DNA of 64,000 nucleotides, taken from contig OX044367.1 of the NCBI GenBank assembly GCA_943846785.1, positions 260,276-324,275 of the forward strand. The letters run 5' to 3'. The position numbers were made by a program, and so were the translations under genes. This document shows, one piece after another, positions 3,061 to 20,652 of this stretch. The stretch is from an uncultured SAR86 cluster bacterium (GTDB taxonomy: Bacteria > Pseudomonadota > Gammaproteobacteria > Magnimaribacterales > D2472). The notes beneath the pieces were generated by a model that was not told where the DNA came from, ran no database searches, and was given only the letters and a program-made list of their open reading frames with translations. Numbering within the stretch: position 1 is the stretch's first letter; each line of letters opens with the position of its first letter.

Positions 3061-4233
3061 TTAAGTTTTTGGAAGATTGTCTTGAAGAAAAGACAACATG
3101 TTTTCACCCATTACTTTTCGAATTTCTTCCTTACCAAGCCCTAGCTCTAATAATTCATGGGTTATTGCAACTAACTCTGATGTGTCAAACCCTGGGGTAA
3201 TGGTTCCATCAAAATCTGAGCCTAGAGCAACATGCTCTGCCCCAATTAGACCAATGCCGTAAATAATTGCTTCAGCTACTGACCTAGGGGTGTTATCGCA
3301 AACAGCCGCGTCCCAAAAACCAACGCCTATGAGGCCTCCTTTTTCAGCTATCTCTATCATCAAGCTATCACTTATATTTCTGGGTGATTTACAGTAACCA
3401 TTGAAACCTGTGTGACTAATAACAAGTGGTTGATTAGAAATACTAAGAACATCTTTAACAACATTTTCAGATGAATGAGAAACATCAATAATAATATCTA
3501 ATCGTTGCATCTCATCGATTGCCTGCCTACCAAACTCTGTCAGGCCTGCGCCACTTGTGCCGTGAAGAGAGCCACCTAACTTATTATCAAAAAAATGTTG
3601 AAGGCTCATCATGCGAAAACTATTTTCATACAAGCGCTCAATATTATCTAAGTTGCCATCGAGAGCGTGTGATCCCTCAGTGCCAATAAGCCCTCCCACC
3701 ATTTTTGGATTATTAACCCTTTTAAGTAAAAAAATACCTAGATCATATTGGGATTCAATTAACATAAAGTTTTCAGGATCGCGTTTTTCTAGATCTTTTA
3801 TTTTATTTGCTTGATATATGGCCCTTTCAAATAAACTAGACCAGGTTTTGATTGGCCATCTCTGGACTATTGCTAAAGCTGTTATGTTGTCATTAGCGCC
3901 GGTTTCATTGCTGTCATAGTTTTGACCAGAAGGCGACTTAGTAACAGTAGTGAACATTTGAAGAGCCACATTACCTGCTTGTAATCGAGGAATATCTGCG
4001 TGCCCATAGTCATAGGTTTTCTTTAAATCCCGATTCCATAACGCGCTATCAGCATGCCAATCCCCAACTATTAATGTGTTGTGAAGTGCTTGAGCTTCTT
4101 CAGAAACAACAAAAGGCGCATGTTCAGAAACAGGATTCATGCTCTTATCAAGCATCTTAGGCAAGATCATTAAAGCAGAGGCCACTAAAATTACTATAAA
4201 TAAGAGTGAGTTGAGTAGTATTTTTTTAGTCAT
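3061..4233 (-). CDS. membrane dipeptidase, peptidase family M19
   Basis: 390 aa with an N-terminal TM anchor. M19 metal-ligand blocks VGDWHADS, GTEGSHALDG, IIDVSHSS, LGSDFDG. Confidence 0.8.
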   Translation of the reverse strand: MTKKILLNSLLFIVILVASALMILPKMLDKSMNPVSEHAPFVVSEEAQALHNTLIVGDWHADSALWNRDLKKTYDYGHADIPRLQAGNVALQMFTTVTKSPSGQNYDSNETGANDNITALAIVQRWPIKTWSSLFERAIYQANKIKDLEKRDPENFMLIESQYDLGIFLLKRVNNPKMVGGLIGTEGSHALDGNLDNIERLYENSFRMMSLQHFFDNKLGGSLHGTSGAGLTEFGRQAIDEMQRLDIIIDVSHSSENVVKDVLSISNQPLVISHTGFNGYCKSPRNISDSLMIEIAEKGGLIGVGFWDAAVCDNTPRSVAEAIIYGIGLIGAEHVALGSDFDGTITPGFDTSELVAITHELLELGLGKEEIRKVMGENMLSFLQDNLPKT

Positions 4234-4251
4234 TTTTAAATTTCTTGTTTT

Positions 4252-4707
4252 TTAGTCATTAAAATTATAGTGGGACTTATAGTCTTTTATTATCGGATAT
4301 TGCTCTCTTAGTTTTTGAAGCATGCTCATAGTATCCTTGCCTCTATACCAAAAAATATTCCTGTACTCATCAAAACAATTAAGGCCTCTTTTTTTAATCT
4401 TCTCTTCCATTAATAAATAATTTTCCAGTAATAACCTTTTTGATGCCATTGGATCCGCTATAGGAAAATAAAAATAATGACATAAATCCCCATTTGATTC
4501 TTGATCCCAATATTCATCCAATGAATACATTTCTTTATTGGTTAGCCTTCTGCAGTCAAAAACAGCATTTACAATTGGAATTTTTGATATTGAACAAATA
4601 CTATCTAATTCATCTGCATCATCGGCATATAAAAAGCCTGATAGAAGGACAATAAAGATGCTTTTATTTAGAAGCCCTTTGTTGACCAGAATTTTATAAG
4701 CGCTCAT
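4252..4707 (-). CDS. hypothetical secreted protein
   Basis: 151-aa ORF with a hydrophobic N-terminus (SIFIVLLSGFLYA). No family recognised. 4-nt ATGA overlap with the upstream ORF. Confidence 0.4.
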   Translation of the reverse strand: MSAYKILVNKGLLNKSIFIVLLSGFLYADDADELDSICSISKIPIVNAVFDCRRLTNKEMYSLDEYWDQESNGDLCHYFYFPIADPMASKRLLLENYLLMEEKIKKRGLNCFDEYRNIFWYRGKDTMSMLQKLREQYPIIKDYKSHYNFND

Positions 4708-4925
4708 TTCTTTTTAAGTCTTTGGTATAAAGTTATTGAGCCATACAAAAACCATACAACGACAAAGCCCCACCATAGAGCAAAGAACCAATCATTTTTA
4801 TCTGTTCCATTCCATTCTATCCATTCAAATACAAAGCCCTCTATAAAGAGATCGAAAGGACAATAATGCGAAGAAGCCAAAAATCCACATACAAGGAAAA
4901 AATTCAGATGATTCAGTTTGTTCAT
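4704..4925 (-). CDS. hypothetical small membrane protein
   Basis: 73 aa with two hydrophobic helices. Translationally coupled to neighbours. Confidence 0.35.
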   Translation of the reverse strand: MNKLNHLNFFLVCGFLASSHYCPFDLFIEGFVFEWIEWNGTDKNDWFFALWWGFVVVWFLYGSITLYQRLKKK

Positions 4926-4929
4926 ACTT

Positions 4930-5223
4930 TCATTTGAGTTTTCTAAGAAGCCAATATCCTAAATAATAATTTATTATTGCTTTTAAGCTGCTAACTATTA
5001 AGGCAGGAAATTGATATACAAAATCTAAAAGATCATTCCAAAACCATGAATATATCCAATCATGGAGAAGCCTAATATTGTCTACTAAGAAGTCTTTAGT
5101 CGACATGCTAAGAATTGAATACTCTGAAAAAGTTATTATAAAAATTTGCCATGCGATAAAACCTAATTGAATAGGTGTTGTATAAATACAAAGATAGGCG
5201 AAGCCTAGGCCTATTTTTTTCAC
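4930..5223 (-). CDS. hypothetical small membrane protein
   Basis: 97 aa, hydrophobic. No recognisable motif. Confidence 0.35.
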   Translation of the reverse strand: MKKIGLGFAYLCIYTTPIQLGFIAWQIFIITFSEYSILSMSTKDFLVDNIRLLHDWIYSWFWNDLLDFVYQFPALIVSSLKAIINYYLGYWLLRKLK

Positions 5224-5247
5224 GAATTTATTTTGATCAAGCTTGAG

Positions 5248-5628
5248 TTAAACCCATTGATCATTTTTAGCCGTGTATTCATTTATAGTATCTCCAGTAT
5301 TCACAACTCCTTTAGGCTCTATGAGCATGATCTTTGCCTCATGCTTAGCAAATGGTTTGTGCCTTGTTCCTTTAGGAATAACTAGCATTTCACCTTCACT
5401 TAATTCGATGGTTTCATTCTCGAATTCTATTCCCATTGTTCCTTCTATAACAATAAAGGTTTCATCCGTTTCTGGATGGCTATGCCATGTAAAATTATCT
5501 TTTATTTTTGCAAGCTTAAACTGATAATCATTCATTTCTTCTATAACTTTTGGTGACCACTTATCAGAGAATTTTTTGAACTTAGATTTAAAATTAATTT
5601 TTTTCATACTATGTCTTATCTTGATCAA
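5248..5628 (-). CDS. cupin domain protein
   Basis: 126 aa. Cupin motif region WHSHPETDETFIVIEG...GEMLVIPKGTRHKP. Confidence 0.6.
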   Translation of the reverse strand: MIKIRHSMKKINFKSKFKKFSDKWSPKVIEEMNDYQFKLAKIKDNFTWHSHPETDETFIVIEGTMGIEFENETIELSEGEMLVIPKGTRHKPFAKHEAKIMLIEPKGVVNTGDTINEYTAKNDQWV

Positions 5629-5992
5629 GATTGACCGCTGCTAGCAACAGTAGGCCTGCAAATATTCCCATGTTTTTATAAAAGTTTTGGGTTTCATGTT
5701 TCGTATCTACGCCATCATATATGTTCCAAAAATCATGCAAGTTTAAGTTTATCAATAAGATCATTGCTGCAAACCCAATGGCGCAGACTACGACTTGCTT
5801 GTTAAGTAAAAGAAGGATGCTTCCACCCACTTGAGCAATGCCGGCAATGGCCAACAAAATAGGAATCATGACCATATTGTGGGTTTCCATTAATGCTATA
5901 TGCGTGTCCCATGAAGTAAATTTTGCTATGCCTGGTAGTAGAAAATAGATTGCGAGTAAAACTCTAGAAATATGAATTAATATAGATTTCAT
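5609..5992 (-). CDS. DoxX family membrane protein
   Basis: 127 aa with four hydrophobic helices. The N-terminal RVLLAIYFLLPGIAKF is typical of DoxX. Confidence 0.5.
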   Translation of the reverse strand: MKSILIHISRVLLAIYFLLPGIAKFTSWDTHIALMETHNMVMIPILLAIAGIAQVGGSILLLLNKQVVVCAIGFAAMILLINLNLHDFWNIYDGVDTKHETQNFYKNMGIFAGLLLLAAVNLDQDKT

Positions 5993-6019
5993 TATTACTC
6001 CCTTGCTAAATACTTAGCT

Positions 6020-6370
6020 TCATTTAAATTCATTCTTCCCATCGAAGTGCACTACCTTATAAATATCTGGTGGCTCATCTACACATCTGAGGTTAATACT
6101 ATAAGAGCCTGGATGAGATCGAGGCTGATAAAAACTTTTTGTTCCACATTTTTTGCAAAACAGATGCTTTGCTTTTTTAGTTCCAAAAGAATATTCAGAG
6201 ATTAAGTCTTTTCCATCTGTTATTTCAAAATCATCATGCTTGATAAAGAGATGTTCGTAACCATGTATTTTGCATATAGAGCAATTACATTCCCAAATTT
6301 CAACAGCCTGATCTGAGTTAAATTTAAATTTAACTTCCCCACAATGACATCTACCAACATACTCTTTCAT
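6020..6370 (-). CDS. GFA family protein (glutathione-dependent formaldehyde-activating enzyme / CENP-V fold)
   Basis: 116 aa. Zinc-cysteine pattern GRCHCGEVKF...CNCSICK...FCKKCG. Confidence 0.75.
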   Translation of the reverse strand: MKEYVGRCHCGEVKFKFNSDQAVEIWECNCSICKIHGYEHLFIKHDDFEITDGKDLISEYSFGTKKAKHLFCKKCGTKSFYQPRSHPGSYSINLRCVDEPPDIYKVVHFDGKNEFK

Positions 6371-6429
6371 AATTGAAGAATATCATGACTAAACTATAGT
6401 GCGATAGGAAATCCTAGCCAGTCTTTTGT

Positions 6430-8250
6430 CTACTCAAGAACAAAATCATAATATCCAAGATAAACATGAATGCTGCCATCATAGTTGTTGAATTCATTTC
6501 TCATTGTTTCTCCATAAACCACTATGTCTTCAATGCCGTCTCCATTTACATCTCTTGGAAATCCTTGTCCATGACCAGCATCCATAAGCAACTCATGCCC
6601 AGGCATTTCATATGATTGATTATTTTCATATTCAACCATTTGTCCTTCGGTATTATTTATGTTTATTATAGGAGTCCCTCCCCTTAGCCTTGGCGTTTCA
6701 TATCCATAGGATCTAGAAAATACGTTTCTTGAAAAATCTGTGTAGCCGTCATTGTTGAGATCTCTACAGTCTAGGAAATTCGCAAAAACTTGATTGTCAT
6801 AGATGTTAAATGGGCTTTCTATTTCAACTATTTTATTGTCTTGGATTTGAAAAACTTTAACCTCTTGGCTCGCATTAAAATTATTTTGATTGTATGTTTC
6901 TCCCTCTATTATTTCTCGACCTTCCTTATGAAAGCTTGTTGCAAATAAACCAAGAAAGGTCGTATTACCGGTATCATCAAATTTATCTTTAAAGAAACAC
7001 ATGGTCTCTGGAGTGTAGTCTATAGAGTACTTGCCATTTACTAAGTACACGGCAGTTGGCCCTTCTGATCCCTGCCAGGATATTTGATTTATAAAAAACT
7101 CTATCGATGTTAATTCTTGATCTACTTTGTTCCAGACATTATTTTCTCTAAACCACAAGGCTAGGCCTCTTTGGGAATAGTCCGTTGATTCATCTGTGGC
7201 AATAATATAGTTATCTTGGTATTTGAGCTCTGTGCTCCATGGAGCTGATCCTATATCAATAATATTAAGGCCGTCATCGCTCATTATGTTTTCTGTAGGA
7301 TATTCATCCTTAACGTCGAGCCATCCTTCTGGTGAATATCTATATGCTTGAAGTCCTATTCCAGTAAAGCCAGCAAATAGTGCATCCACATTTCCATTGT
7401 CATGCTCAACTATAGTTACTGCATGCCCCCAATCTGGGGTTCCAACTTTTACTATCTCATATTCTGTCTCGCCTTTAGATAATATAATTGCTGGGCTCGC
7501 TCTTGAGTATTCCCAAGGGTCTCCATTTCTTCCATCTTCCCAGTTCATAGCAAAAGCAAAATCGTCTCTTCCGTCTCCATTAAAATCACCTCTATCATAT
7601 TTTCTGCTTGCACCACCAAGGCTTGGGATATTTTCACCAAATACTTCTTGATTGCCCTCACGGTAGGTTCCATCACCATTAGAAAGATGCACAACGATTA
7701 AGTCTGGTGTTGGTTCTTGAATAACATCACCAAACTTATCTCTGTAAAGGTCACACCATTGATGCGCCATAAAGTCTTCCCAGCCATCATTATTAATATC
7801 TACAGGTATTACAAACTGAATAGATGGCTGAGCCTCTGAATAATCTGTATTACAAACCTGAGGGTAAAGATTTGAGTCGCTAATAATAATTGGCTCTTCT
7901 TTAAACTGGGATTTATATTCAGCTGTTACGGTGACGCTGCCCTCAGCAGAACCGCCATTTCCAGTGCATTTAATTTTAAATACTTGGCTGCCATCAACTG
8001 TAATGGTGAGAACCTCCTCACCGCTGATACCTTTAACTCCCTGCCAGCTTTCTGATGCCTCACATGCAGTCGAATTATTTGATGACCAAGAAATCGTAAC
8101 CTGCTCATCAACAAATAAGCTCATAGGGCTAGCTGAAATAGAAACTGTTGGTGCTGGAATAGGAGCTGGCTCAGGAGCGCTTCCGCCTCCTCCGCCACCA
8201 CAGGAAACAAGAATAAATATAGCTGGGATAACTGAATAAATTTTTAACAT
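6430..8250 (-). CDS. FG-GAP/VCBS-repeat surface lipoprotein
   Basis: 606 aa. Lipobox LVSC followed by GGGGGGSAPEPAPIPAP linker. Repeated Ca-binding DxNxDGxxD loops (DINNDGWEDF, DFNGDGRDDF, DLNNDGYTDF, DVNGDGIEDIV). Confidence 0.7.
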   Translation of the reverse strand: MLKIYSVIPAIFILVSCGGGGGGSAPEPAPIPAPTVSISASPMSLFVDEQVTISWSSNNSTACEASESWQGVKGISGEEVLTITVDGSQVFKIKCTGNGGSAEGSVTVTAEYKSQFKEEPIIISDSNLYPQVCNTDYSEAQPSIQFVIPVDINNDGWEDFMAHQWCDLYRDKFGDVIQEPTPDLIVVHLSNGDGTYREGNQEVFGENIPSLGGASRKYDRGDFNGDGRDDFAFAMNWEDGRNGDPWEYSRASPAIILSKGETEYEIVKVGTPDWGHAVTIVEHDNGNVDALFAGFTGIGLQAYRYSPEGWLDVKDEYPTENIMSDDGLNIIDIGSAPWSTELKYQDNYIIATDESTDYSQRGLALWFRENNVWNKVDQELTSIEFFINQISWQGSEGPTAVYLVNGKYSIDYTPETMCFFKDKFDDTGNTTFLGLFATSFHKEGREIIEGETYNQNNFNASQEVKVFQIQDNKIVEIESPFNIYDNQVFANFLDCRDLNNDGYTDFSRNVFSRSYGYETPRLRGGTPIININNTEGQMVEYENNQSYEMPGHELLMDAGHGQGFPRDVNGDGIEDIVVYGETMRNEFNNYDGSIHVYLGYYDFVLE

Positions 8251-9532: not shown

Positions 9533-11050
9533 ATGCAAGAACGTCCAGACTATTCTAAGTTTATAGAACGCTTAAAAATGAGCGAAGATGAAACTAGGAT
9601 CGAATCAACTAAAAAACGTCATAGTAAAAAATATAGGACGGCGAGAGAAAATTTAAATCACTTGGTAGATGGGGATTCTTTTTTAGAGTTTGGTCAGTTT
9701 GCCGTGGCAGCACAACGAACACGAAGAGAAAAGGAAGATCTAATTCTCAACACAAATGCAGACGGAGTTATTACTGGGTTTTGCAAAATAAATTCTGATA
9801 TATCAAAAAAATTGAATGCTGATGCCGTGGCAATTGTTTATGATTATTCTGTTCTTGCTGGCACGCAAGGACTATTCCATCATCAAAAATTAGATCGCAT
9901 ATTTGAAAAGGCAAAGACATATAAATTACCAATTGTTATTTTTACTGAGGGTGGTGGAGGTAGGCCTGGGGATGTTGATGTTCTTACACAGATTGCAGGC
10001 ATGCATATCCCAAGCTTTGCTAGGTGGGCCTCGCTCCATAAAGAGTGTTTGAGAATAGCTATTACAAATGGATACTGCTTCGCTGGAAATGCTGCTCTTT
10101 TTGGAGCTAGTGATATAAGAATTGCAACTAAAGGGTCGAATATAGGAATGGCAGGACCCGCAATGATAGAGGGTGGTGGTCTTGGTAAATTCTCACCCGA
10201 TGATATTGGCGCTGTTGAGGATCATTTGTTAAATGGGGTCGTAGATGTTCTTGTTGAAAATGAAGAGCAGGCTACAAACATTGCAAAAAAAATACTTTCT
10301 TATTTCCAAGGCTCAATTGATAAGTTTGATGTCTCAGATCAGGAGCTTCTTAAAAATATTCTTCCTGATGACAGAAGGTTTAGTTATGAAATTAGAGACA
10401 TTATCGAGATAGTCGCTGATTTAGATTCATTTATAGAATTAAAAAAAGGTTATGGGAGAAGCTTAGTCACCGGACTTATTAGAGTTGAAGGGATTGCTTT
10501 TGGTTTATTAGCATCAGACTGTAAGTTCTTGGGTGGTGCTATTGATTCTGATTCTGCAGACAAAGCAGCAGAATTCTTTGAGCTCTGTAATGACCAAGGC
10601 TTGCCCATGGTTTCTATAGTGGATACTCCTGGTTTTATGGTTGGTCCTGATAGTGAAAAAGAAGGCGCTCCAAGAAGAATGGGCAAGTTATTTAAATCAA
10701 GCTCAACCTTTAAAAACAATCTTGTTTCTATTTTTCTTCGAAAAGGGTATGGCCTTGGGGCTCAAGCAATTGTTGGCGGCAGCTTACATAAGTCTACTTA
10801 TACGTGTGCTTGGCCATCGGGCGAGTTTGGAGGAATGGGTCTTGAGGGAGCGGTTAGGCTTGGTTACAAAAAAGAGCTTGAAGCCATATCGGACCCAAAA
10901 GAAAAAGAAATTCTTTATAACAAGCTAGTTGATAAAATGTATGAAGCAGGACAGGCGATGGAAGCTGCATCATTTTTAGAAATAGATGCTGTAATAAATC
11001 CCTCTAAAACACGAGAAACAATTATCAAAGCTCAGCATTCACTAAAATAA
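9533..11050 (+). CDS. acyl-CoA carboxylase carboxyltransferase subunit (fused N/C carboxyltransferase domains)
   Basis: 505 aa. Carboxyl-transferase blocks VAIVYDYSVLAGTQG, FTEGGGGRPGD, IVDTPGFMVGP, AWPSGEFGGMGLEGAV. Confidence 0.8.
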   Translation: MQERPDYSKFIERLKMSEDETRIESTKKRHSKKYRTARENLNHLVDGDSFLEFGQFAVAAQRTRREKEDLILNTNADGVITGFCKINSDISKKLNADAVAIVYDYSVLAGTQGLFHHQKLDRIFEKAKTYKLPIVIFTEGGGGRPGDVDVLTQIAGMHIPSFARWASLHKECLRIAITNGYCFAGNAALFGASDIRIATKGSNIGMAGPAMIEGGGLGKFSPDDIGAVEDHLLNGVVDVLVENEEQATNIAKKILSYFQGSIDKFDVSDQELLKNILPDDRRFSYEIRDIIEIVADLDSFIELKKGYGRSLVTGLIRVEGIAFGLLASDCKFLGGAIDSDSADKAAEFFELCNDQGLPMVSIVDTPGFMVGPDSEKEGAPRRMGKLFKSSSTFKNNLVSIFLRKGYGLGAQAIVGGSLHKSTYTCAWPSGEFGGMGLEGAVRLGYKKELEAISDPKEKEILYNKLVDKMYEAGQAMEAASFLEIDAVINPSKTRETIIKAQHSLK

Positions 11051-11302
11051 TGAATATAGTTAGTTAAGCTCTCCTTTTATTTTTTAATTGGGTTTCTCTC
11101 TATTTTTTGATCATATAAGAAAATTTTTTATTGTTTGAAATGAAGTTAATATCATTAAAAATGAACTTGCCAATAATTGTGCCAAATATGAGAAAACCAA
11201 GTCTATTCAGAATGTGGGATTAAAATGAAAGTCGTTATAAACTTACTCCGCTGTAACAGAGTTCTCGAAGTAAGGTTTGGGTTTTCCACTATTTGTGCAT
11301 GG

Positions 11303-12106
11303 CTAACGATCATTGGTTGCTCTGCTGATTCGACTAAGTCCTTTCTTGCGCCGATAGATAGCTATTTTTCTCGAAGCATCAATGGATTGCGAAATTCTCT
11401 GCCAAAAAGGTTTTTTCTCCGGATACCAACTGTTAGATTTATCCGGTAAAACGCCGTCCAGAACAACTTCCCAATCCGGCGATGATTCGTATCCACAACC
11501 GACGAGATCTGGTGTCATTGTGCCGTGGATTGCCTGCTGTTGAACGATGCGACCGAGATGTTTTCGCCAGACACCGACACTGGTCGTTCCAATGGGACGG
11601 ACGCCACGCATTGCAACCTTTGACTTTTCAGACACTTGCGCGTGTTCATGGTACTCAGAAAATTTGTGTTGTTTCTCAAGCCATGGAAATTTTGCAGTGA
11701 TTTGGTTTTGTGTGGCGTCAGGGTTATTTACGAAATCCTCGTACCGGATATTGAGAAAACGATCGTGGCCGAACAATGAGCGTGCACAGGCATGCAATTC
11801 ACGCCAAAGCCTAATGTTCGAGTAGTACATATCCTCGCTCTTACCGTGCCGGCTAACGATGACATCACGCGGATCGCGCGTTACGTAAATGACATAGAGA
11901 TTAGGATCGTCGATGACTCCTGGCATGTACAACGTATCTTTGGGTCGTTTCGTGATAACCACATCGTTGTTTTTTGCGGTTACGAGGTGAAAGCGAATCT
12001 CATGGTCATAATGCTTGTTTGTCCGAAAACAAGTGGCCATCGCCTCGTGCAAGAGAGTAGTACCGGATCGCGGCGAGCAGGCAACAATGTGAATGTGCTT
12101 AAACAG
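11303..12106 (-). CDS. PAPS-dependent sulfotransferase family protein (copy 1)
   Basis: Contains the 5'-PSB loop PRSGTT and the 3'-PB motif RDPRDVIVS. The ORF-track start (TTG 12052) lies downstream of PRSGTT. The frame is open back to 12109. CTG 12106..12104 sits 7 nt after AAGGAG (12119..12114) and would give MFKHIHIVACSPRSGTTLLHEAM. Confidence 0.7.
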   Translation of the reverse strand: MFKHIHIVACSPRSGTTLLHEAMATCFRTNKHYDHEIRFHLVTAKNNDVVITKRPKDTLYMPGVIDDPNLYVIYVTRDPRDVIVSRHGKSEDMYYSNIRLWRELHACARSLFGHDRFLNIRYEDFVNNPDATQNQITAKFPWLEKQHKFSEYHEHAQVSEKSKVAMRGVRPIGTTSVGVWRKHLGRIVQQQAIHGTMTPDLVGCGYESSPDWEVVLDGVLPDKSNSWYPEKKPFWQRISQSIDASRKIAIYRRKKGLSRISRATNDR

Positions 12107-12117
12107 ACGTCAACTCC

Positions 12118-12843
12118 TTAATTAGCCATTGCCGCTTCGTTATAGGCAGATATTAGTATTTGCCAATCGGCCAGTTGCCAATAAATATTATGTAATCGTT
12201 TTTCTTTCTCAAATGATCGCTTTAAACGCGCTATGTTTGAGTTTTTCCAATTACTGCCTTGTCTAATTTGGCATTTATCAAAATCAATTAACCAAACCTC
12301 GTTTTCTATATCGAGCATAATGTTGTGGATATTTAAATCGTGGAGATAAATCTGATGATGATGAAATTTGGCAATGGTTTGACCAATTTTTTTCCAAACA
12401 TCAGCGGTTAAGCTGTTTGCTAGTAAAATATGATGTAAGTCCCTAGCGCTGGAAATTTTTTTTAAAATGATATCGGCTTGGTAATATAAGCCAGTCTTCT
12501 TCAACATCGCTGCGATCGGGGTTGGACAATTTAAATCCATATTTTTCATTTGCTGTAGCAGCTTAAATTCTCGCCATGCTCGTGATTTTTCAATACCTGT
12601 GTACATATATTGATCACTTAGTACTTTTCCAATCAATCCGCCACGACGATAGTGCCGTAACACATATTCATTTTTGTTATGTTTAAAAAAGTAGGTGGTA
12701 CCACGGCCGGTTGCCTGTCCTGTTATGGCATTTTGTGTCTTCCAATATTGACCCGTAAACATTTTTGGGACAGGTACAGGGAAATGGCCTGAATCAAACA
12801 ACATGATGTGGGACTTAACTGATTTTTGTTTTATGTATGCCAT
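12118..12843 (-). CDS. kdkA: 3-deoxy-D-manno-octulosonic acid (Kdo) kinase (copy 1)
   Basis: 241 aa. Kdo/LPS kinase family blocks GRGTTYFF, YVLRHYRRGGLIGK, catalytic loop HDLNIHNIML, WLIDFDK. The ATG lies 4 nt after the upstream stop. Confidence 0.8.
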   Translation of the reverse strand: MAYIKQKSVKSHIMLFDSGHFPVPVPKMFTGQYWKTQNAITGQATGRGTTYFFKHNKNEYVLRHYRRGGLIGKVLSDQYMYTGIEKSRAWREFKLLQQMKNMDLNCPTPIAAMLKKTGLYYQADIILKKISSARDLHHILLANSLTADVWKKIGQTIAKFHHHQIYLHDLNIHNIMLDIENEVWLIDFDKCQIRQGSNWKNSNIARLKRSFEKEKRLHNIYWQLADWQILISAYNEAAMAN

Positions 12844-12847
12844 GTAA

Positions 12848-13771
12848 CTATTTTTGGCTTAAACGGATATTACTACGCACTTTAGACAATTGAGAATTTT
12901 CTTTATAACGTCCTTTTGTAACATGATGAATATGAAAAACACCATCAATATGCTTAGGCTCACCATCAGTGCCAAGTAGCCAGCGAAAGGCGGTGTCTTC
13001 ATAGGTTTTACGCCAACGGTCAGATTCAGTTTGAAATATTGACAGTTTTTCACAATAACCTATAGCACGAGCAACGTCACCATGAACAATTTGAAATGGG
13101 CCGCGTGCTTTATCACGGGATTTGCCACGCTCGTATAAACTGAAATTTTCTGTTTCTATATCGATAACTTGTGGTTGGGCATCATTTGACAATAATGGGT
13201 CATCATCTTCTAACATCTCAGTGATTTTTTCTTCTTTAGGAAAAAACAATGAACCTTTCTCGCCTTGTAAACTATCGGCGAGTGAGTCTAAGCAGTTCTC
13301 ATAAAAGATAATGTCGCAATCTGTAAACCATATCCAGTCAGCTTCTGTTGACCGCGCAGCCATATTTCGGCCTATACCACGTCTAAAGAGCTTTCCTTTG
13401 GTAAGAGGGTGGAAATTCCAAGTTATATTTGGCGTGGTTATTTGACTAAAGAAGTCCAATGTAGCCTTTGTTTTAGTATCTTCTTTAGCATAAAAAACGG
13501 TCACAGTTAAATTTAGTTTCGTTGGTGGATAGTTTACAAACGAACTTAATTGATAGGTTAACATGTTGGCATAACCCCAGCAGTGACTAACAATTTCTAA
13601 ATCAAACTTTCCCTTTACTGCCTTGCGATCTGCTTCAGCAGGTATTTTATCGCGAAACAATGACTGCGGTAAAATACGACCAAACACTAAACGATAAGCT
13701 TGTATAGCAAAGCTATTAAAGACATTTGGTGAAAATGTTTTTGTTTCTATCATGATAAATAAGTAAGCCAA
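12848..13771 (-). CDS. GT-A fold (family 2-like) glycosyltransferase (copy 1)
   Basis: 307 aa from TTG 13771, or 301 aa from ATG 13753. GT2 hallmark GRNMAARSTEADWIWFTDCDIIF with a DxD-like DCD. First strand is LEIVSHCW. Confidence 0.6.
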   Translation of the reverse strand: MAYLFIMIETKTFSPNVFNSFAIQAYRLVFGRILPQSLFRDKIPAEADRKAVKGKFDLEIVSHCWGYANMLTYQLSSFVNYPPTKLNLTVTVFYAKEDTKTKATLDFFSQITTPNITWNFHPLTKGKLFRRGIGRNMAARSTEADWIWFTDCDIIFYENCLDSLADSLQGEKGSLFFPKEEKITEMLEDDDPLLSNDAQPQVIDIETENFSLYERGKSRDKARGPFQIVHGDVARAIGYCEKLSIFQTESDRWRKTYEDTAFRWLLGTDGEPKHIDGVFHIHHVTKGRYKENSQLSKVRSNIRLSQK

Positions 13772-13920
13772 CTCATTTCTTAAAAAACTTTTTTATGCTT
13801 TCTAACAAAATTTACTCGACAGTACACGACTGAGTTCAACAGGGGGGGTTCTTTACCTTCGCTGTTAGGGTTACTACAAATCGACTTCATTTTCACTACC
13901 GTAATGATATCCCGTTTATA

Positions 13921-13946
13921 AAAAAAGAGGTATCCCCTCTTTTTAT
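13921..13946 (-). terminator. rho-independent terminator-like hairpin, potentially bidirectional
   Basis: AAAAGAGG-tatcc-CCTCTTTT with an A-tract on one side and a T-tract on the other. It lies 77 nt downstream of the unit-2 sulfotransferase stop. Confidence 0.5.
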
Positions 13947-13978
13947 TGAATACTTTTAATAATTATTAATTTATGAAG

Positions 13979-14017
13979 CAACCTCAGAATGCGGGATTAA
14001 AGCGAAAGTTGAGGTTG
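13979..14017. other. terminal inverted-repeat hairpin of the cassette (CAACCTCA-N23-TGAGGTTG)
   Basis: Perfect 8-bp arms at 13979..13986 and 14010..14017. The right arm ends exactly at the unit 1 / unit 2 junction. Confidence 0.6.
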
Positions 14018-14022
14018 CATGG

Positions 14023-14826
14023 CTAACGATCATTGGTTGCTCTGCTGATTCGACTAAGTCCTTTCTTGCGCCGATAGATAGCTATTTTTCTCGAAGCATC
14101 AATGGATTGCGAAATTCTCTGCCAAAAAGGTTTTTTCTCCGGATACCAACTGTTAGATTTATCCGGTAAAACGCCGTCCAGAACAACTTCCCAATCCGGC
14201 GATGATTCGTATCCACAACCGACGAGATCTGGTGTCATTGTGCCGTGGATTGCCTGCTGTTGAACGATGCGACCGAGATGTTTTCGCCAGACACCGACAC
14301 TGGTCGTTCCAATGGGACGGACGCCACGCATTGCAACCTTTGACTTTTCAGACACTTGCGCGTGTTCATGGTACTCAGAAAATTTGTGTTGTTTCTCAAG
14401 CCATGGAAATTTTGCAGTGATTTGGTTTTGTGTGGCGTCAGGGTTATTTACGAAATCCTCGTACCGGATATTGAGAAAACGATCGTGGCCGAACAATGAG
14501 CGTGCACAGGCATGCAATTCACGCCAAAGCCTAATGTTCGAGTAGTACATATCCTCGCTCTTACCGTGCCGGCTAACGATGACATCACGCGGATCGCGCG
14601 TTACGTAAATGACATAGAGATTAGGATCGTCGATGACTCCTGGCATGTACAACGTATCTTTGGGTCGTTTCGTGATAACCACATCGTTGTTTTTTGCGGT
14701 TACGAGGTGAAAGCGAATCTCATGGTCATAATGCTTGTTTGTCCGAAAACAAGTGGCCATCGCCTCGTGCAAGAGAGTAGTACCGGATCGCGGCGAGCAG
14801 GCAACAATGTGAATGTGCTTAAACAG
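14023..14826 (-). CDS. PAPS-dependent sulfotransferase family protein (copy 2)
   Basis: Identical to copy 1. CTG 14826..14824 follows AAGGAG 14839..14834. Confidence 0.7.
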   Translation of the reverse strand: MFKHIHIVACSPRSGTTLLHEAMATCFRTNKHYDHEIRFHLVTAKNNDVVITKRPKDTLYMPGVIDDPNLYVIYVTRDPRDVIVSRHGKSEDMYYSNIRLWRELHACARSLFGHDRFLNIRYEDFVNNPDATQNQITAKFPWLEKQHKFSEYHEHAQVSEKSKVAMRGVRPIGTTSVGVWRKHLGRIVQQQAIHGTMTPDLVGCGYESSPDWEVVLDGVLPDKSNSWYPEKKPFWQRISQSIDASRKIAIYRRKKGLSRISRATNDR

Positions 14827-14837
14827 ACGTCAACTCC

Positions 14838-15563
14838 TTAATTAGCCATTGCCGCTTCGTTATAGGCAGATATTAGTATTTGCCAATCGGCCAGTTGCCA
14901 ATAAATATTATGTAATCGTTTTTCTTTCTCAAATGATCGCTTTAAACGCGCTATGTTTGAGTTTTTCCAATTACTGCCTTGTCTAATTTGGCATTTATCA
15001 AAATCAATTAACCAAACCTCGTTTTCTATATCGAGCATAATGTTGTGGATATTTAAATCGTGGAGATAAATCTGATGATGATGAAATTTGGCAATGGTTT
15101 GACCAATTTTTTTCCAAACATCAGCGGTTAAGCTGTTTGCTAGTAAAATATGATGTAAGTCCCTAGCGCTGGAAATTTTTTTTAAAATGATATCGGCTTG
15201 GTAATATAAGCCAGTCTTCTTCAACATCGCTGCGATCGGGGTTGGACAATTTAAATCCATATTTTTCATTTGCTGTAGCAGCTTAAATTCTCGCCATGCT
15301 CGTGATTTTTCAATACCTGTGTACATATATTGATCACTTAGTACTTTTCCAATCAATCCGCCACGACGATAGTGCCGTAACACATATTCATTTTTGTTAT
15401 GTTTAAAAAAGTAGGTGGTACCACGGCCGGTTGCCTGTCCTGTTATGGCATTTTGTGTCTTCCAATATTGACCCGTAAACATTTTTGGGACAGGTACAGG
15501 GAAATGGCCTGAATCAAACAACATGATGTGGGACTTAACTGATTTTTGTTTTATGTATGCCAT
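14838..15563 (-). CDS. kdkA: Kdo kinase (copy 2)
   Basis: Protein identical to 12118..12843. Confidence 0.8.
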   Translation of the reverse strand: MAYIKQKSVKSHIMLFDSGHFPVPVPKMFTGQYWKTQNAITGQATGRGTTYFFKHNKNEYVLRHYRRGGLIGKVLSDQYMYTGIEKSRAWREFKLLQQMKNMDLNCPTPIAAMLKKTGLYYQADIILKKISSARDLHHILLANSLTADVWKKIGQTIAKFHHHQIYLHDLNIHNIMLDIENEVWLIDFDKCQIRQGSNWKNSNIARLKRSFEKEKRLHNIYWQLADWQILISAYNEAAMAN

Positions 15564-15567
15564 GTAA

Positions 15568-16491
15568 CTATTTTTGGCTTAAACGGATATTACTACGCAC
15601 TTTAGACAATTGAGAATTTTCTTTATAACGTCCTTTTGTAACATGATGAATATGAAAAACACCATCAATATGCTTAGGCTCACCATCAGTGCCAAGTAGC
15701 CAGCGAAAGGCGGTGTCTTCATAGGTTTTACGCCAACGGTCAGATTCAGTTTGAAATATTGACAGTTTTTCACAATAACCTATAGCACGAGCAACGTCAC
15801 CATGAACAATTTGAAATGGGCCGCGTGCTTTATCACGGGATTTGCCACGCTCGTATAAACTGAAATTTTCTGTTTCTATATCGATAACTTGTGGTTGGGC
15901 ATCATTTGACAATAATGGGTCATCATCTTCTAACATCTCAGTGATTTTTTCTTCTTTAGGAAAAAACAATGAACCTTTCTCGCCTTGTAAACTATCGGCG
16001 AGTGAGTCTAAGCAGTTCTCATAAAAGATAATGTCGCAATCTGTAAACCATATCCAGTCAGCTTCTGTTGACCGCGCAGCCATATTTCGGCCTATACCAC
16101 GTCTAAAGAGCTTTCCTTTGGTAAGAGGGTGGAAATTCCAAGTTATATTTGGCGTGGTTATTTGACTAAAGAAGTCCAATGTAGCCTTTGTTTTAGTATC
16201 TTCTTTAGCATAAAAAACGGTCACAGTTAAATTTAGTTTCGTTGGTGGATAGTTTACAAACGAACTTAATTGATAGGTTAACATGTTGGCATAACCCCAG
16301 CAGTGACTAACAATTTCTAAATCAAACTTTCCCTTTACTGCCTTGCGATCTGCTTCAGCAGGTATTTTATCGCGAAACAATGACTGCGGTAAAATACGAC
16401 CAAACACTAAACGATAAGCTTGTATAGCAAAGCTATTAAAGACATTTGGTGAAAATGTTTTTGTTTCTATCATGATAAATAAGTAAGCCAA
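15568..16491 (-). CDS. GT-A fold (family 2-like) glycosyltransferase (copy 2)
   Basis: Protein identical to 12848..13771. Confidence 0.6.
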   Translation of the reverse strand: MAYLFIMIETKTFSPNVFNSFAIQAYRLVFGRILPQSLFRDKIPAEADRKAVKGKFDLEIVSHCWGYANMLTYQLSSFVNYPPTKLNLTVTVFYAKEDTKTKATLDFFSQITTPNITWNFHPLTKGKLFRRGIGRNMAARSTEADWIWFTDCDIIFYENCLDSLADSLQGEKGSLFFPKEEKITEMLEDDDPLLSNDAQPQVIDIETENFSLYERGKSRDKARGPFQIVHGDVARAIGYCEKLSIFQTESDRWRKTYEDTAFRWLLGTDGEPKHIDGVFHIHHVTKGRYKENSQLSKVRSNIRLSQK

Positions 16492-16640
16492 CTCATTTCT
16501 TAAAAAACTTTTTTATGCTTTCTAACAAAATTTACTCGACAGTACACGACTGAGTTCAACAGGGGGGGTTCTTTACCTTCGCTGTTAGGGTTACTACAAA
16601 TCGACTTCATTTTCACTACCGTAATGATATCTCGTTTATA

Positions 16641-16666
16641 AAAAAAGAGGTATCCCCTCTTTTTAT
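16641..16666 (-). terminator. rho-independent terminator-like hairpin (copy 2)
   Basis: Same sequence as 13921..13946. Here it lies downstream of the host MAPEG gene. Confidence 0.5.
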
Positions 16667-16698
16667 TGAATACTTTTAATAATTATTAATTTATGAAG

Positions 16699-16737
16699 CA
16701 ACCTCAGAATGCGGGATTAAAGCGAAAGTTGAGGTTG
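16699..16737. other. terminal inverted-repeat hairpin of the cassette (copy 2, forms the right end of the insert)
   Basis: CAACCTCA-N23-TGAGGTTG. Identity with the host-free repeat stops at 16737. Confidence 0.6.
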
Positions 16738-16842
16738 ACTTATTCCACTGTGACTGACTGGTTTTGAACAGAGAATTAGATTTCTTTCCCTGAAACCCTT
16801 TATGGAAACTCTGATAAAACTTTATATATTTTTCTTCCATAC

Positions 16843-17241
16843 TTATAAAAGTAGCATAATCGACGTCCTGATGAGACCCAAGAAACCAACAAAAGTTAGT
16901 GCCATACCACCAATTCTTAAAAACATATTTGGTTTCAAAAAAGAAAAAACTATTCCGTGCATCAATCTCCCGACCGTAAATGCTATTCCAGAGAAATAAA
17001 GTTGAGTTTGAGGTGCCCCTGATAATTCAAGAATAAACATTAAAATTAAGAATAGTGGAGCATATTCGACTAGATTTCCGTGCCCTCTGATGGACCTTTG
17101 AAGAGTTTTGTCATCAACAATCCTATTGGGTTTGTGAAGAAATTTTGTGACGGGACTTCCTCTGAGGTCGAGAACTCTAAAAGATAGAATTATCATAAAT
17201 GATGAAAGTATCGTGGCAAATATTAGAGTAATTTCTGGCAT
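16843..17241 (-). CDS. MAPEG family membrane protein (microsomal glutathione S-transferase-like)
   Basis: 132 aa with four helices. MAPEG motif RSIRGHGNLVEYAPLFL. Confidence 0.65.
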   Translation of the reverse strand: MPEITLIFATILSSFMIILSFRVLDLRGSPVTKFLHKPNRIVDDKTLQRSIRGHGNLVEYAPLFLILMFILELSGAPQTQLYFSGIAFTVGRLMHGIVFSFLKPNMFLRIGGMALTFVGFLGLIRTSIMLLL

Positions 17242-17304
17242 GTTTATAAATTTATAATTCTCTGTTTTGTTCTACTCCACCGTAACAGAGTATCCATAAC
17301 CAAA

Positions 17305-18462
17305 TTATTGTTGTTTGTAATTTTGGTCATGAAGATCCATTATATTTTCAGCGATTGTATGTAAGTCAGTATTAAAACCTGTGTCGGCGTCATTGGTTCT
17401 TAAGTTAACCCCATATAACCCATTCAACCATATTAGCGCTCCTGTGTTAACAACAATTTTACCTTGATGTCCCTTTGTATCTCTAAATATTGAATCATCA
17501 TAGGAACCAAATAAGGAAATATCATCAAGCAATAAATTATTTTCATACTGATCAACCAAATCAAATGTTGCCCACCCGGTTGGAAGAGTAAATATTTCTG
17601 TTGAAGGGTATATTTCGCGCAACTGATCAATGACAGCCTTATGCGAGAGATCGCTAACCAAATACCCATATAAATCTCTTATATTGTTATACCCATAATC
17701 TTCTGCTACTTGCTGCCAGTCTGCTGGAAAATCTATGGGTGGAATGTGTACAAATATTTTTATGTTGGGGTTATTTTGCAAAGCATAATCTATCCATTCT
17801 GTAAAACCTGATAAAGGGTTATTTTCATTTAAATACCAAGTCATCCCAAGAATGTCGATGTTCCCAGAATCTAGAATTTGTTTAATTTCTGTGTTTGTGT
17901 CTTCTTTTGTCCATAATCCAATTGGTGTGCCGTAAACGCCGCCTCTCATAACGATAGTATCTCTGTGTTCTAAAAAGTCTGCATCTAGTGCTAACTCGCT
18001 GAATCTTTCAGCGTAAGGTCTAAAGAAACTATTACCCATGAGTAACATATTTGATCCACCCATGCCCTCAAGAACATCGTTAATGGAAATTATTATTCCA
18101 AGCGATGAGGATAATGAACCATCTGATGCAATTATGGTTACTTCATAAATATTATCTTGATTACTGTCTTGTGGATTTTCATAGTCTGGTGGCGAAATAA
18201 AAGATAGTTCTCCAGACAAGCTCCCTATTGTCATTAATGCTGAGTCAGAACCTTCAATGGAATAGGTTATATTGTCCCCCTCGGCATCTGTTGCTTGAAT
18301 AGTAGTTACCTGAGTGGTGTTTTCATCAATTGCAAAATCAATTAAACCTACAAGTTGAGGTGCTGTATTTACTTGTTCGGGTGTCTCACTATTGCTTCCC
18401 CCGCCGCCACATCCTACAAGAGCGGTTACTAGAATAATTAGATATCTATAGTTTTGTTCCAT
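17305..18462 (-). CDS. lipoprotein with an N-terminal cadherin-like domain and a C-terminal uncharacterised (possibly SGNH-like) domain
   Basis: 385 aa. Lipobox LVGC followed by GGGGSNSE. Cadherin-like segment IDENTTQVTTIQATDAEGDNITYSIEG...YEVTIIASDG. Confidence 0.6.
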   Translation of the reverse strand: MEQNYRYLIILVTALVGCGGGGSNSETPEQVNTAPQLVGLIDFAIDENTTQVTTIQATDAEGDNITYSIEGSDSALMTIGSLSGELSFISPPDYENPQDSNQDNIYEVTIIASDGSLSSSLGIIISINDVLEGMGGSNMLLMGNSFFRPYAERFSELALDADFLEHRDTIVMRGGVYGTPIGLWTKEDTNTEIKQILDSGNIDILGMTWYLNENNPLSGFTEWIDYALQNNPNIKIFVHIPPIDFPADWQQVAEDYGYNNIRDLYGYLVSDLSHKAVIDQLREIYPSTEIFTLPTGWATFDLVDQYENNLLLDDISLFGSYDDSIFRDTKGHQGKIVVNTGALIWLNGLYGVNLRTNDADTGFNTDLHTIAENIMDLHDQNYKQQ

Positions 18463-18559
18463 ATGTATTTTTATAAGTAAGTTACGTATTAAATATAGAT
18501 TGAGAATTGCTTTCCAATAGTCAGTATTGGTAACTTTATTAAGATATCACATGATTTTC

Positions 18560-18614
18560 ATATTTTTATGAGGGTAAGTTGGAAAAGATTCTTTTTCAGA
18601 TTGGTCTTGATCAA
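18560..18614. repeat. 55-bp direct repeat, copy A
   Basis: atatttttatgagggtaagttggaaaagattctttttcagattgGtcttgatcaa. Matches 18755..18809 at 54 of 55 positions. Confidence 0.85.
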
Positions 18615-18754
18615 TTGCATATTGTGTTATCTTATCGTTTGCTTCAGGAATACCTGAAGTCATTGTCAATCTCATTCTTCTTTGCTGAGAATAACCTGAC
18701 TCACTTACATGAATCGTCTCATTGATTGGTGTTTTTATTATGTATAAGATTTAT

Positions 18755-18809
18755 ATATTTTTATGAGGGTAAGTTGGAAAAGATTCTTTTTCAGATTGAT
18801 CTTGATCAA
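18755..18809. repeat. 55-bp direct repeat, copy B (begins 15 nt beyond the glmS stop codon)
   Basis: Same sequence as copy A, with A at 18799 instead of G at 18604. Period is 195 nt. Confidence 0.85.
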
Positions 18810-18824
18810 CCGAGAAACCTTTCC

Positions 18825-20652
18825 TTATTCCACCGTAACTGACTTTGCTAGATTCCTTGGTTGATCAATATCTGTTCCTCTTAGTAAGGCGACTTCATAT
18901 GAAAGAATCTGTAGAGGAATGTTATATACAATAGGAGTTAAGAAGAAATCACATTTTGGCATATGAACAAGCTCACCAGCCTTAACATCCATTTTTACCG
19001 ATGGATCAGCAAAAACATATAGCGTGCCACCTCTTGCTTTTACTTCCTCAAGATTAGAAATTAATTTTTCAGCTATTTCGCTTTCAGGTGCCAATGCAAT
19101 AACTGGCATATTCTCATCAATAAGAGCCAGTGGTCCATGCTTTAACTCGCCTGCTGGGTATGCCTCTGCATGAATATAAGAAATCTCTTTTAAGTTTTAA
19201 GGCGCCCTCTTTTGCAATTGGATAAAAAATTCCTCTGCCTAAGAAAAGAGCATTGTCCTTGTTTGCAATACTTGGCGCTATTGCTGCGATTTGTTCTTTT
19301 TGCAGCAGTGATTCTGAAATTGTTTCTGGTAATAATCTTAGTGCATTAACAATTCTGCCTCTTAATTTGGGATTTAAGTCTTTGCTTTTGGCTAAAGAAA
19401 GAGCAAGCAACATAAGAGCAGCTAGCTGAGTGGTGAACGCTTTGGTTGAGGCAACTCCAATTTCTGGGCCAGCATTAGTAAAAAGCACAAAGTCAGACTC
19501 TCTTGCTAGTGAACTTGTTGGAACATTACAAATAGCTAGAGAAGCCAAATAATTCTTTTCTTTTGCGTAGCTCAGCGCTGCCAATGTGTCTGCAGTCTCT
19601 CCAGATTGAGAAATGGTTATGATTAATGAATCATCATCTACATGAGGGTTTCTATATCTGTATTCACTAGCGTAATCTATTTGACATGGGAGTTCAGCTA
19701 TAGATGAAAACCAATTTGCTGCTACTCTTCCAGCATGAAGGCTAGTTCCACAAGCAACAATTTGTATTCGTTTAACTTTTGCAAAAATATCGCTAGAACC
19801 TAATCCAAAAATATTATCTAAGACATCTTCTCCACCTATTCTTCCATCGATAGTATTGGATACTGCTTCAGGTTGTTCATAGATTTCTTTTTCCATAAAG
19901 TGTCTATAGTCACCTTTTGAGGTTGCTTGGTTTGAAATATCTATATGGGTTACTTCTCTGGTAACTTCTTTTTTAGAGCTATCAAAAATTTTATAAGAGT
20001 TCGCTGATATTTCTGCAACATCTCCATCTTCTAGAAAGATAAAATCGTTTGTCATTTGTGCTATAGCTAAAGGGTCAGAGGCGGCAAATATTTCATCCGT
20101 GCCAAGGCCAATTAACAAAGGCGACTTGTTTCTTGCTACAACTAAATTAGTATTATCTTTAATGTCTATAGCAGCTATTGCATAAGCTCCTTCAAGTTTT
20201 TCTTTTGCTAAATACATTGCATCGAGCATGCTGTTACCTTCATTCATATGCAGATCAAGTAAATGCGCTATAAGCTCTGAGTCGGTTTGGGATGAAAACT
20301 CATAGCCGTCGCTCATTAGGGATTCTCGCAAGTCCACATAGTTTTCAATAATGCCGTTATGAACGATATATACAGAGTCTTTTGATTTATGTGGGTGGGC
20401 ATTTATCTCTGAAGGCTCTCCATGAGTTGCCCATCTTGTATGCGCAATGCCGAGCTTACTCTTTGGCTTTTCAGCAATCATTTTATCTTCGAGAAGCTGA
20501 ACTTTACCTAATGCACGCAAGTGAGCAATTGATTCATTTTGATGCAAGGCGATTCCTGCTGAGTCATAGCCTCTATATTCCATTTTATGGAGCCCTTGAA
20601 CTAGTAATTTACCAACGTTTCTTGTTGATGCTGCAGCAATGATTCCGCACAT
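18825..20652 (-). pseudogene. glmS: glutamine--fructose-6-phosphate aminotransferase, frame broken by one extra base
   Basis: ORFs 19117..20652 (MCGIIAAAST...) and 18825..19109 (...[11 protein letters not shown]) are two frames of one GlmS. Removing one T from the run 19188..19191 restores ...[40 protein letters not shown]. Confidence 0.85.

Follow-up and report, generated by a model that had tools for sequence, protein, structure and literature searches.

A head-to-tail dimer of a Kdo-kinase operon in a mosaic island downstream of glmS in an uncultured SAR86 bacterium

Tandem duplication and amplification of bacterial DNA is known from Salmonella and E. coli, and unstable amplifications of this kind lie behind antibiotic heteroresistance. 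Tn7 inserts 23 bp past the glmS stop codon and duplicates 5 bp of its target; the glmS terminus itself stays unduplicated. For the variability of envelope-glycan islands, phage pressure is a commonly proposed driver. In SAR11, the genes for lipopolysaccharide (LPS) and for glycosyltransferases gather in equivalent islands that vary between strains, where they form divergent paralogues (30% clustering) (PMC11796062), and among long-read structural variants, those of SAR86 included, duplications were reported to be rare (PMC12379486). The modules of Prochlorococcus tycheposon islands are separated by partial target copies, with new elements displacing older ones outward; integrase-less remnants occur, a minority of elements use large serine recombinases and some subpopulations contain tandem-repeat junctions (bioRxiv 10.1101/2020.12.28.424599). 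Here we describe a stretch of 64,000 nt from an uncultured SAR86 bacterium (contig OX044367.1, positions 260,276 to 324,275; hereafter the window), in which a three-gene cassette with a gene for 3-deoxy-D-manno-octulosonic acid (Kdo) kinase is present twice, head to tail, in a mosaic flexible island directly downstream of atp-glmU-glmS.

The locus resembles tandem duplication-amplification in its near-identical head-to-tail units, in having one new joint that shows hardly any homology or none, in the occurrence of one, two and three copies among close relatives and in the involvement of a whole operon with its regulatory DNA. In contrast to the laboratory cases, the array is found in a wild, uncultured, genome-streamlined marine bacterium and inside a mosaic island; unlike duplication-amplification elsewhere, three joints have their breakpoints within 8 nt of one another. 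With the flexible glycan islands (PMC11796062, PMC12379486) it shares strain-variable envelope genes and the need for long reads to see them, whereas the SAR86 copies are identical and in tandem. Judged from sequence comparisons, the array is probably a real and evolutionarily very recent two-fold tandem amplification of a self-contained LPS inner-core operon.

Geometry and content of the repeated unit

Direct base comparison gave a period of 2,720 nt: s[i]=s[i+2720] across window positions 11296-14017 versus 14016-16737, with a single exception (13912 = G, 16632 = A). Identity between the copies is lost from 11295 leftward and from 14018/16738 rightward, and the dinucleotide CA on the minus strand (TG on the plus strand) is common to 11296-7, 14016-7 and 16736-7, so that the breakpoint is ambiguous by 2 nt. 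The self-blastn proposed in the initial annotation matched the two copies at 99.963% over 2,722 nt and found no further copy of the unit in the 64-kb window. The minus-strand open reading frames (ORFs) 11303-12052, 12118-12843 and 12848-13771 are repeated at +2720 with identical translations, and the junction contains no spacer, partial copy or insertion sequence (IS). The initial annotation had been made from the letters alone, and its description of this geometry agrees with ours throughout: a head-to-tail dimer of a 2,720-bp cassette at 11296-16737 with a shared TG, three ORFs recurring with identical proteins exactly 2,720 nt to the right, directly abutting units without an IS and a single mismatch in the non-coding part, which we place within the leader. 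The features of the repeat are as follows.

11296..14015, minus strand: unit copy distal to glmS, allele G at 13912
14016..16737, minus strand: glmS-proximal copy of the unit, 2,720 nt and the shared CA, allele A at 16632
14014..14019: copy-copy junction, on the minus strand ...GATCGTTAGCCATG-CA-ACCTCAAC...
13912 (G) and 16632 (A): only mismatch between the copies, just 5' of GATATC
13979..14017, minus strand, second copy 16699-16737: hairpin CAACCTCA...TGAGGTTG (motif B) with a 9-bp stem, its base being the 5' breakpoint of the unit
13918..13946, second copy 16638-16666: intrinsic-terminator-like hairpin AAAAAGAGGGG-ATA-CCTCTTTTTTT in the leader
12848..13771, minus strand, second copy 15568-16491: GT2/GT-A glycosyltransferase, 307 aa when started at TTG (301 aa in gene calls of other contigs)
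12118..12843, minus strand, second copy 14838-15563: KdkA, Kdo kinase, 241 aa (NCBIfam NF002475, Pfam PF06293)
11303..12052, minus strand, second copy 14023-14772: sulfotransferase-like ST1, 245-249 aa (Pfam PF13469 and PF00685, weak)

Contiguous direct copies (two or more), one novel joint and unchanged outer flanks characterize a tandem duplication or amplification, and these were found here. A chance origin of an exact repeat of 2.7 kb is impossible. The dimer is genuine as a sequence feature and most probably genuine biologically. TRF is unable to detect a period of such length; a search of the E. coli genome gave no match, and tRNA and Rfam scans of the window found nothing.

On the gene (minus) strand each unit runs from the first hairpin through the terminator hairpin and a leader of ~150 nt to the genes for the glycosyltransferase (GT), KdkA and ST1. 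KdkA matches the NCBIfam equivalog NF002475 over residues 5-237 of 241 (6e-89, 297 bits, cut-off 142), a full-length match above the equivalog cut-off as expected of a Kdo kinase, and Pfam PF06293 at 1.3e-48. The glycosyltransferase shows a weak match to Pfam PF00535 and is placed in family 2 by the names of its homologues in Colwellia, Glaciecola and Thalassotalea (60-67% identity). The Pfam matches of ST1 are restricted to the C-terminal half of the profiles. PDB sequence searches with the glycosyltransferase and the sulfotransferase-like protein were uninformative. Both KdkA and ST1 recur as exact proteins, the former in 162 blocks of public assemblies and the latter (245 aa) on 91 contigs; the genomes matching best were MAGs and single-cell genomes of the SAR86 cluster. 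From KdkA of Haemophilus and Vibrio, we presume that the operon makes the phosphorylated Kdo inner core of LPS.

The terminator-like hairpin separates each unit from upstream DNA. Because this hairpin and the leader sit inside the unit, we infer that each copy would be expressed separately and that dosage should scale with copy number. A scan for promoter and terminator consensus sequences showed no enrichment and overlooked this obvious hairpin. Motif B is homologous to sequence just downstream of glmS in other SAR86; its likeness to the 5' half of the tRNA-Gly beside the canonical locus was set aside after the motif had matched the glmS-downstream hairpin of those genomes.

Copy number among relatives

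An exact look-up of the ST1 protein led to long Flye-style contigs that belong to this species but were assembled from other samples (loci are designated by L numbers). About 30 distinct contigs span the island, and three carry an operon-containing array. The single-copy parent arrangement is represented by L104/L124 (ERZ10646650 contig_4046, 958 kb), which has one copy between the exact flanks of the window: 14017->5303 aligns ungapped at 99.83% (an 8.7-kb flank) and 18614->14016 at 99.54%, and both window copies align to one interval, 4024-6745. Three copies are found in L109/L128 (ERZ10646082 contig_8866, 192 kb; same species, different sample), with flanks 98.7-99.6% identical and the order glmS, cadherin-like, MAPEG, three units, ST2, desaturase. 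Copy number is one in L124, L122, L123 and L108, two in the window and three in L128, and single-copy and triple-copy alleles lie within ~0.2-1.3% flank divergence. All units compared (n = nine) are 2,712 nt long and free of indels, with at most 2 differing sites, and there are no indels within the window's two units relative to eight other units. Another SAR86 species (L112/L113, NCBI CALTBE010000002.1) contains a 6,579-bp tandem duplication at L113 1222-14379, whose copies differ by 2 mismatches and whose joint includes a 17-nt filler. This duplication comprises GT-KdkA-ST, MAPEG and desaturase genes, and its breakpoints lie inside or beside genes.

The operon arrays of the window and L128 have three joints with a common right side, CAACCTCA:

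Window: GATCGTTAGCCATG + CAACCTCA
L128, joint j1: GATCGTTA + CAACCTCA
L128, joint j2: GATCGTTAGCCATG + ATAAGT + CAACCTCA

The copy-copy adjacency ...GATCGTTAGCCATGCA|ACCTCAAC... was absent from all single-copy contigs examined, and a read-overlap assembler is therefore unlikely to invent it without reads crossing it. Likewise, the one-copy and three-copy loci of independently assembled sister strains, and the array of the other species, make a one-off assembler artefact unlikely, and the copy-number polymorphism of this highly plastic island is most likely real. An artefact would require that a 2.7-kb sequence shared at 99.9% by several co-occurring strains and species had been threaded twice, or that the copy number of a graph loop had been misjudged. 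It would fit the noisy long-read consensus of the window, the occurrence of the operon in several species of the same sample series (hence a graph repeat), the presence in the two copies of two alleles segregating in the population and the 6-nt differences between junctions, which could be polishing artefacts. However, at least three independent assemblies carry arrays that differ in copy number, flanks and units, and on either side the flanks of the window array agree exactly with those of the single-copy contig, so that we regard this explanation as unlikely. The initial annotation had left open whether the repeat reflects recent amplification under selection or an assembly artefact; the conspecific one-copy and three-copy contigs and the array of the other species favor real and recent amplification, whereas any selection for dosage would be pure inference.

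Several further observations weigh against a real two-copy array formed by tandem amplification. About ten private 1-nt indels break atpA, atpG, atpD, glmU and glmS in the window (at ~25652, 25047, 25020, 24476, 23607, 23480, 21221, 20783, 20735 and 19191), and four conspecific contigs agree against the window at these positions; the window sequence is for this reason judged to be a noisy consensus of error-prone long reads. None of the private indels falls inside the duplicated units. Copy number can be misjudged in arrays assembled from such reads. An exact junction scan of JGI metagenome contigs gave 0 matches, where short-read assemblies would collapse the repeat anyway. In addition, the three known joints form a 6-nt step series, which could reflect independent hot-spot events, the erosion of a single joint or artefacts of polishing with reads of mixed strains, and both breakpoints lie within 8 nt in the three junctions, contrary to the prediction of random illegitimate recombination.

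One closely related contig (L123 3400-3480; ERZ10646527 contig_10011) has lost all of glmS and most of glmU: an in-frame fusion links glmU codon ~83 and the glmS-end motif (...GDA|VTVE*), with 4 nt of microhomology (CAGT) at the joint. Either the contig is misassembled here or the deletion is real, in which case it looks lethal and would have to be compensated elsewhere.

The variable A/G site differs in the same manner in both operon arrays: in the window as in L128, the glmS-proximal unit carries A and the distal units carry G. The former is the allele of MAPEG-linked single copies and the latter that of other contexts. Since the distal allele is typical of these other contexts, the extra (distal) unit may come from another strain's DNA rather than from the sister chromatid. 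Related contigs show four alleles at this site (GG, GGG, GGT and GAG), and it may be hypermutable or represent a base-calling artefact, possibly linked to methylation. The recurrent proximal/distal pattern would also fit an old, stably kept pair of paralogous operons homogenised by gene conversion. We consider this very improbable, as one-copy and three-copy alleles occur within the narrow flank divergence given above and the copies differ at one site per 2,720 nt, non-coding DNA included.

A mosaic island bounded by glmS-end repeats

The initial annotation overlooked the setting of the dimer, a mosaic island next to glmS in which repeats of the glmS 3' end mark the module boundaries. This setting would account for the instability of the array. 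The remaining features of the island are the following.

18825..20652, minus strand: glmS, split into 511 + 94 aa by the window-private 1-nt insertion near 19191
18824..18844, minus strand: true glmS 3' end (...NLAKSVTVE*), prototype of motif A
17305..18462, minus strand: cadherin-like protein, 385 aa, in a module spanning 17271-18614
17271..17289, minus strand: glmS 3'-end remnant between the cadherin-like and MAPEG modules
16843..17241, minus strand: MAPEG-family membrane protein, in a module spanning 16749-17283 (535 bp)
16739..16759, minus strand: glmS 3'-end remnant, motif A AGTCAGTCACAGTGGAATAAG (...SVTVE*), 1 nt upstream of the array at the MAPEG/unit boundary
16532-16547, 13812-13827 and 11281-11295, gene strand: degenerate glmS-end copies
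11242..11262, minus strand: glmS 3'-end remnant CTCTGTTACAGCGGAGTAAG, past the array by 35 nt; a further motif B comes after it, at 11207-11231
9533..11050, plus strand: carboxyltransferase module, which replaces ST2 in the window strain and L124/L123

The glmS-terminus motif (synonymous variants) occurs 4 times in the window, always on the gene strand, versus 0.32 expected, and the repeats partition the cadherin-like module, the MAPEG module and the array. In 19 island loci, 70 motifs were found on the gene strand and none on the other, and 11% of the homology breakpoints lie within 15 nt of a motif versus 1% at random. Modules are flanked by direct repeats of the target end, as in a site-specific integrative island. 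A 6-kb module in L120 (929-6998), with a glmS-end motif on both sides, encodes a 577-aa large serine integrase (phrog_95, 2.4e-59) together with eight further ORFs without a family match. Neither the island of the window nor the surrounding ~10 kb of conspecific contigs contained an integrase. Viral contigs contained no operon (one 41% relative) and no relative of the integrase, and hence give no sign of phage carriage.

Two further repeats were observed: a perfect 12-nt inverted repeat, AACAGAGAATTA / TAATTCTCTGTT, at the ends of the MAPEG module (16767-16778 and 17255-17266), and a direct repeat of 89 nt (18526-18614 and 18725-18809; imperfect, 88% identity), by which the leader of the cadherin-like module recurs just past the glmS stop codon.

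Parts of the island are shared with another SAR86 species (L011/L002). The operon (window 11310-13972) and the MAPEG module are 99.6-99.9% identical between the two, the operon 99.9%, whereas the desaturase and FG-GAP genes of the same pair are 85% and glmS-glmU 75% identical. A near-identical operon beside diverged neighbors bears the signature of recent transfer between species. The two species also differ by a circular permutation: MAPEG lies upstream of the operon in the window and downstream in the other species. In other SAR86 lineages the GT-KdkA pair is found beside a tRNA-Gly gene or elsewhere, and is 94-98% identical where the flanks are unalignable. In several other SAR86 species (L012, L015, L016, L018-L020, L023 and L028), GT-KdkA(-ST1-ST2) lies beside a tRNA-Gly(GCC)-like gene and not in the glmS island; the tRNA gene at these loci was read by eye, on the opposite strand, ~150-300 nt upstream of the glycosyltransferase gene.

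Modules bounded in this way bear the marks of site-specific insertions made one after another at the glmS terminus. As in tycheposon islands, the modules are separated by copies of the target end; the integrase-less modules would correspond to older remnants displaced outward, and the integrase of L120 to the large serine recombinases that a minority of tycheposons use. Unlike in tycheposons, the repeated target is the 3' end of a protein gene (glmS) and not of a tRNA or tmRNA, and most modules measure 0.5-2.7 kb without an integrase. The start of the variable DNA immediately downstream of glmS recalls Tn7 at attTn7. The island ORFs of the window and the Pfam lists of related islands contained no transposase (Tns) domains, with no search made for Tn7 ends; a Tn7-like element was rejected, as the island ORFs of the window comprise only cadherin-like, MAPEG, GT2, KdkA and sulfotransferase-like proteins. 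Similar to integron arrays, small co-oriented cassettes are separated by short repeats resembling recombination sites and are shuffled among genomes. In contrast to integrons, the repeat is a remnant of coding sequence rather than an attC hairpin, and each cassette comes with a terminator and a leader. In loci that span ~window 1-26,000, the Pfam lists showed no tyrosine recombinase (IntI), attC folding not having been specifically modelled; an integron was rejected because there is no IntI nearby and the boundary repeat is the coding end of glmS.

A broader but tentative and rather doubtful proposal is that the DNA downstream of glmS forms a cassette-accretion system, which would use the last ~20-50 nt of glmS as attachment site and would include integrase-less modules such as the Kdo-kinase operon. 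Modules would then be captured, shuffled, circularly permuted, tandemly amplified and passed between species, the large serine integrase of some islands could act in trans, and the dimer would be a cassette re-inserted beside itself. We found no literature linking SAR86, glmS and such an island.

Formation of the joint and meaning of the array

The unit's 3' breakpoint is located 7 nt past the ST1 stop codon. In sister strains and at the canonical locus of other SAR86, ST1 is followed by ST2 (232 aa, P-loop KTRKTSGTS); the two are not paralogues (BLASTP E = 0.24). Three different sequences follow GCCATGCA, which initially gave the look of a recurrent breakpoint. This coincidence is explained by a 13-nt direct repeat, CGTTAGCCATGCA, that flanks ST2 (L122 10728-11430; same site at window 11296-11308): precise loss of ST2 yields the 'tail' form seen in the window and L124, and the window retains the first 17 nt of ST2. 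That the 3' breakpoint marks the end of the module was rejected, as the operon runs 38 nt further to a glmS-end repeat (nine JGI contigs and also L100-L107). The 5' breakpoint coincides with the base of the first hairpin and follows the remnant of the glmS stop codon by 1-5 nt. Microhomology at the joint amounts to CA (2 nt), or CAA (3 nt) if the parent was of the ST2 type.

None of the three joints contains the hybrid repeat that homologous or conservative site-specific exchange between flanking glmS-end repeats would leave. Unequal crossing-over between the ~60-nt glmS-end + hairpin repeats that flank a single-copy unit was rejected, since the joint lacks both the hybrid repeat and the 38-nt tail. 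The missing hybrid repeat also speaks against an alternative in which the unit is a site-specifically mobilised cassette: a recombinase, for instance the large serine integrase of related islands, would excise a circle closed at the joint between 3' and 5' breakpoints (b|a), with crossover at CA, and the circle would re-integrate beside a resident copy through site-specific or homologous recombination. Such a cassette would explain why the joint shares a dinucleotide like the products of serine recombinases and why a glmS-end repeat is found 1-5 nt away from the 5' breakpoint, repeats of this type bounding almost every module. It would also be in line with the repeat-flanked integrase module of L120, the permuted operon/MAPEG order, the 99.9% identity of the operon across species, the 'foreign' allele of the distal units and the tandem-repeat junctions reported for tycheposon subpopulations (bioRxiv 10.1101/2020.12.28.424599). 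However, the island and its conspecific surroundings (~10 kb) are devoid of an integrase, the breakpoints lie 12-20 nt to the right of the crossover implied by the module boundaries (GTN|ACN), the three junctions are non-identical, unlike the products of conservative site-specific recombination, and the L113 array has breakpoints inside genes and a 17-nt filler. Mobilisation of this kind appears improbable on balance.

Under tandem amplification, the reading that we prefer, the first joint would have formed at a hot spot associated with the hairpin, where sequences sharing 0-3 nt of homology were joined illegitimately. The short microhomology and the 6-nt steps between the joints point in this direction. 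The partners would be the base of the glmS-terminator-like hairpin, just 3' of the glmS-end repeat, and the 13-nt CGTTAGCCATGCA at the operon end. Copy number could then rise and fall by RecA-type unequal crossing-over between the 2.7-kb repeats, and gene dosage would be expected to follow it, every unit having its own leader.

Tandem amplification is well known as a type of event; this case gains a moderate degree of interest from its organism, from its occurrence in a natural population and from a modular island bounded by repeats. If the array is real, it represents gene amplification caught in a wild population of an uncultured heterotroph that ranks among the most abundant in the ocean. 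The amplified operon would build the phosphorylated Kdo core of LPS, and its genes are envelope glycan genes of the kind concentrated in islands (PMC11796062). The 99.9% identical operon between neighbors of 75-85% identity, together with the repeats of the glmS terminus, would define a specific and testable route of gene flow in SAR86, and none such is described for this clade in the literature searched. The occurrence of one, two and three copies among strains less than 1.5% apart suggests that streamlined genomes tolerate transient amplification in their flexible islands.

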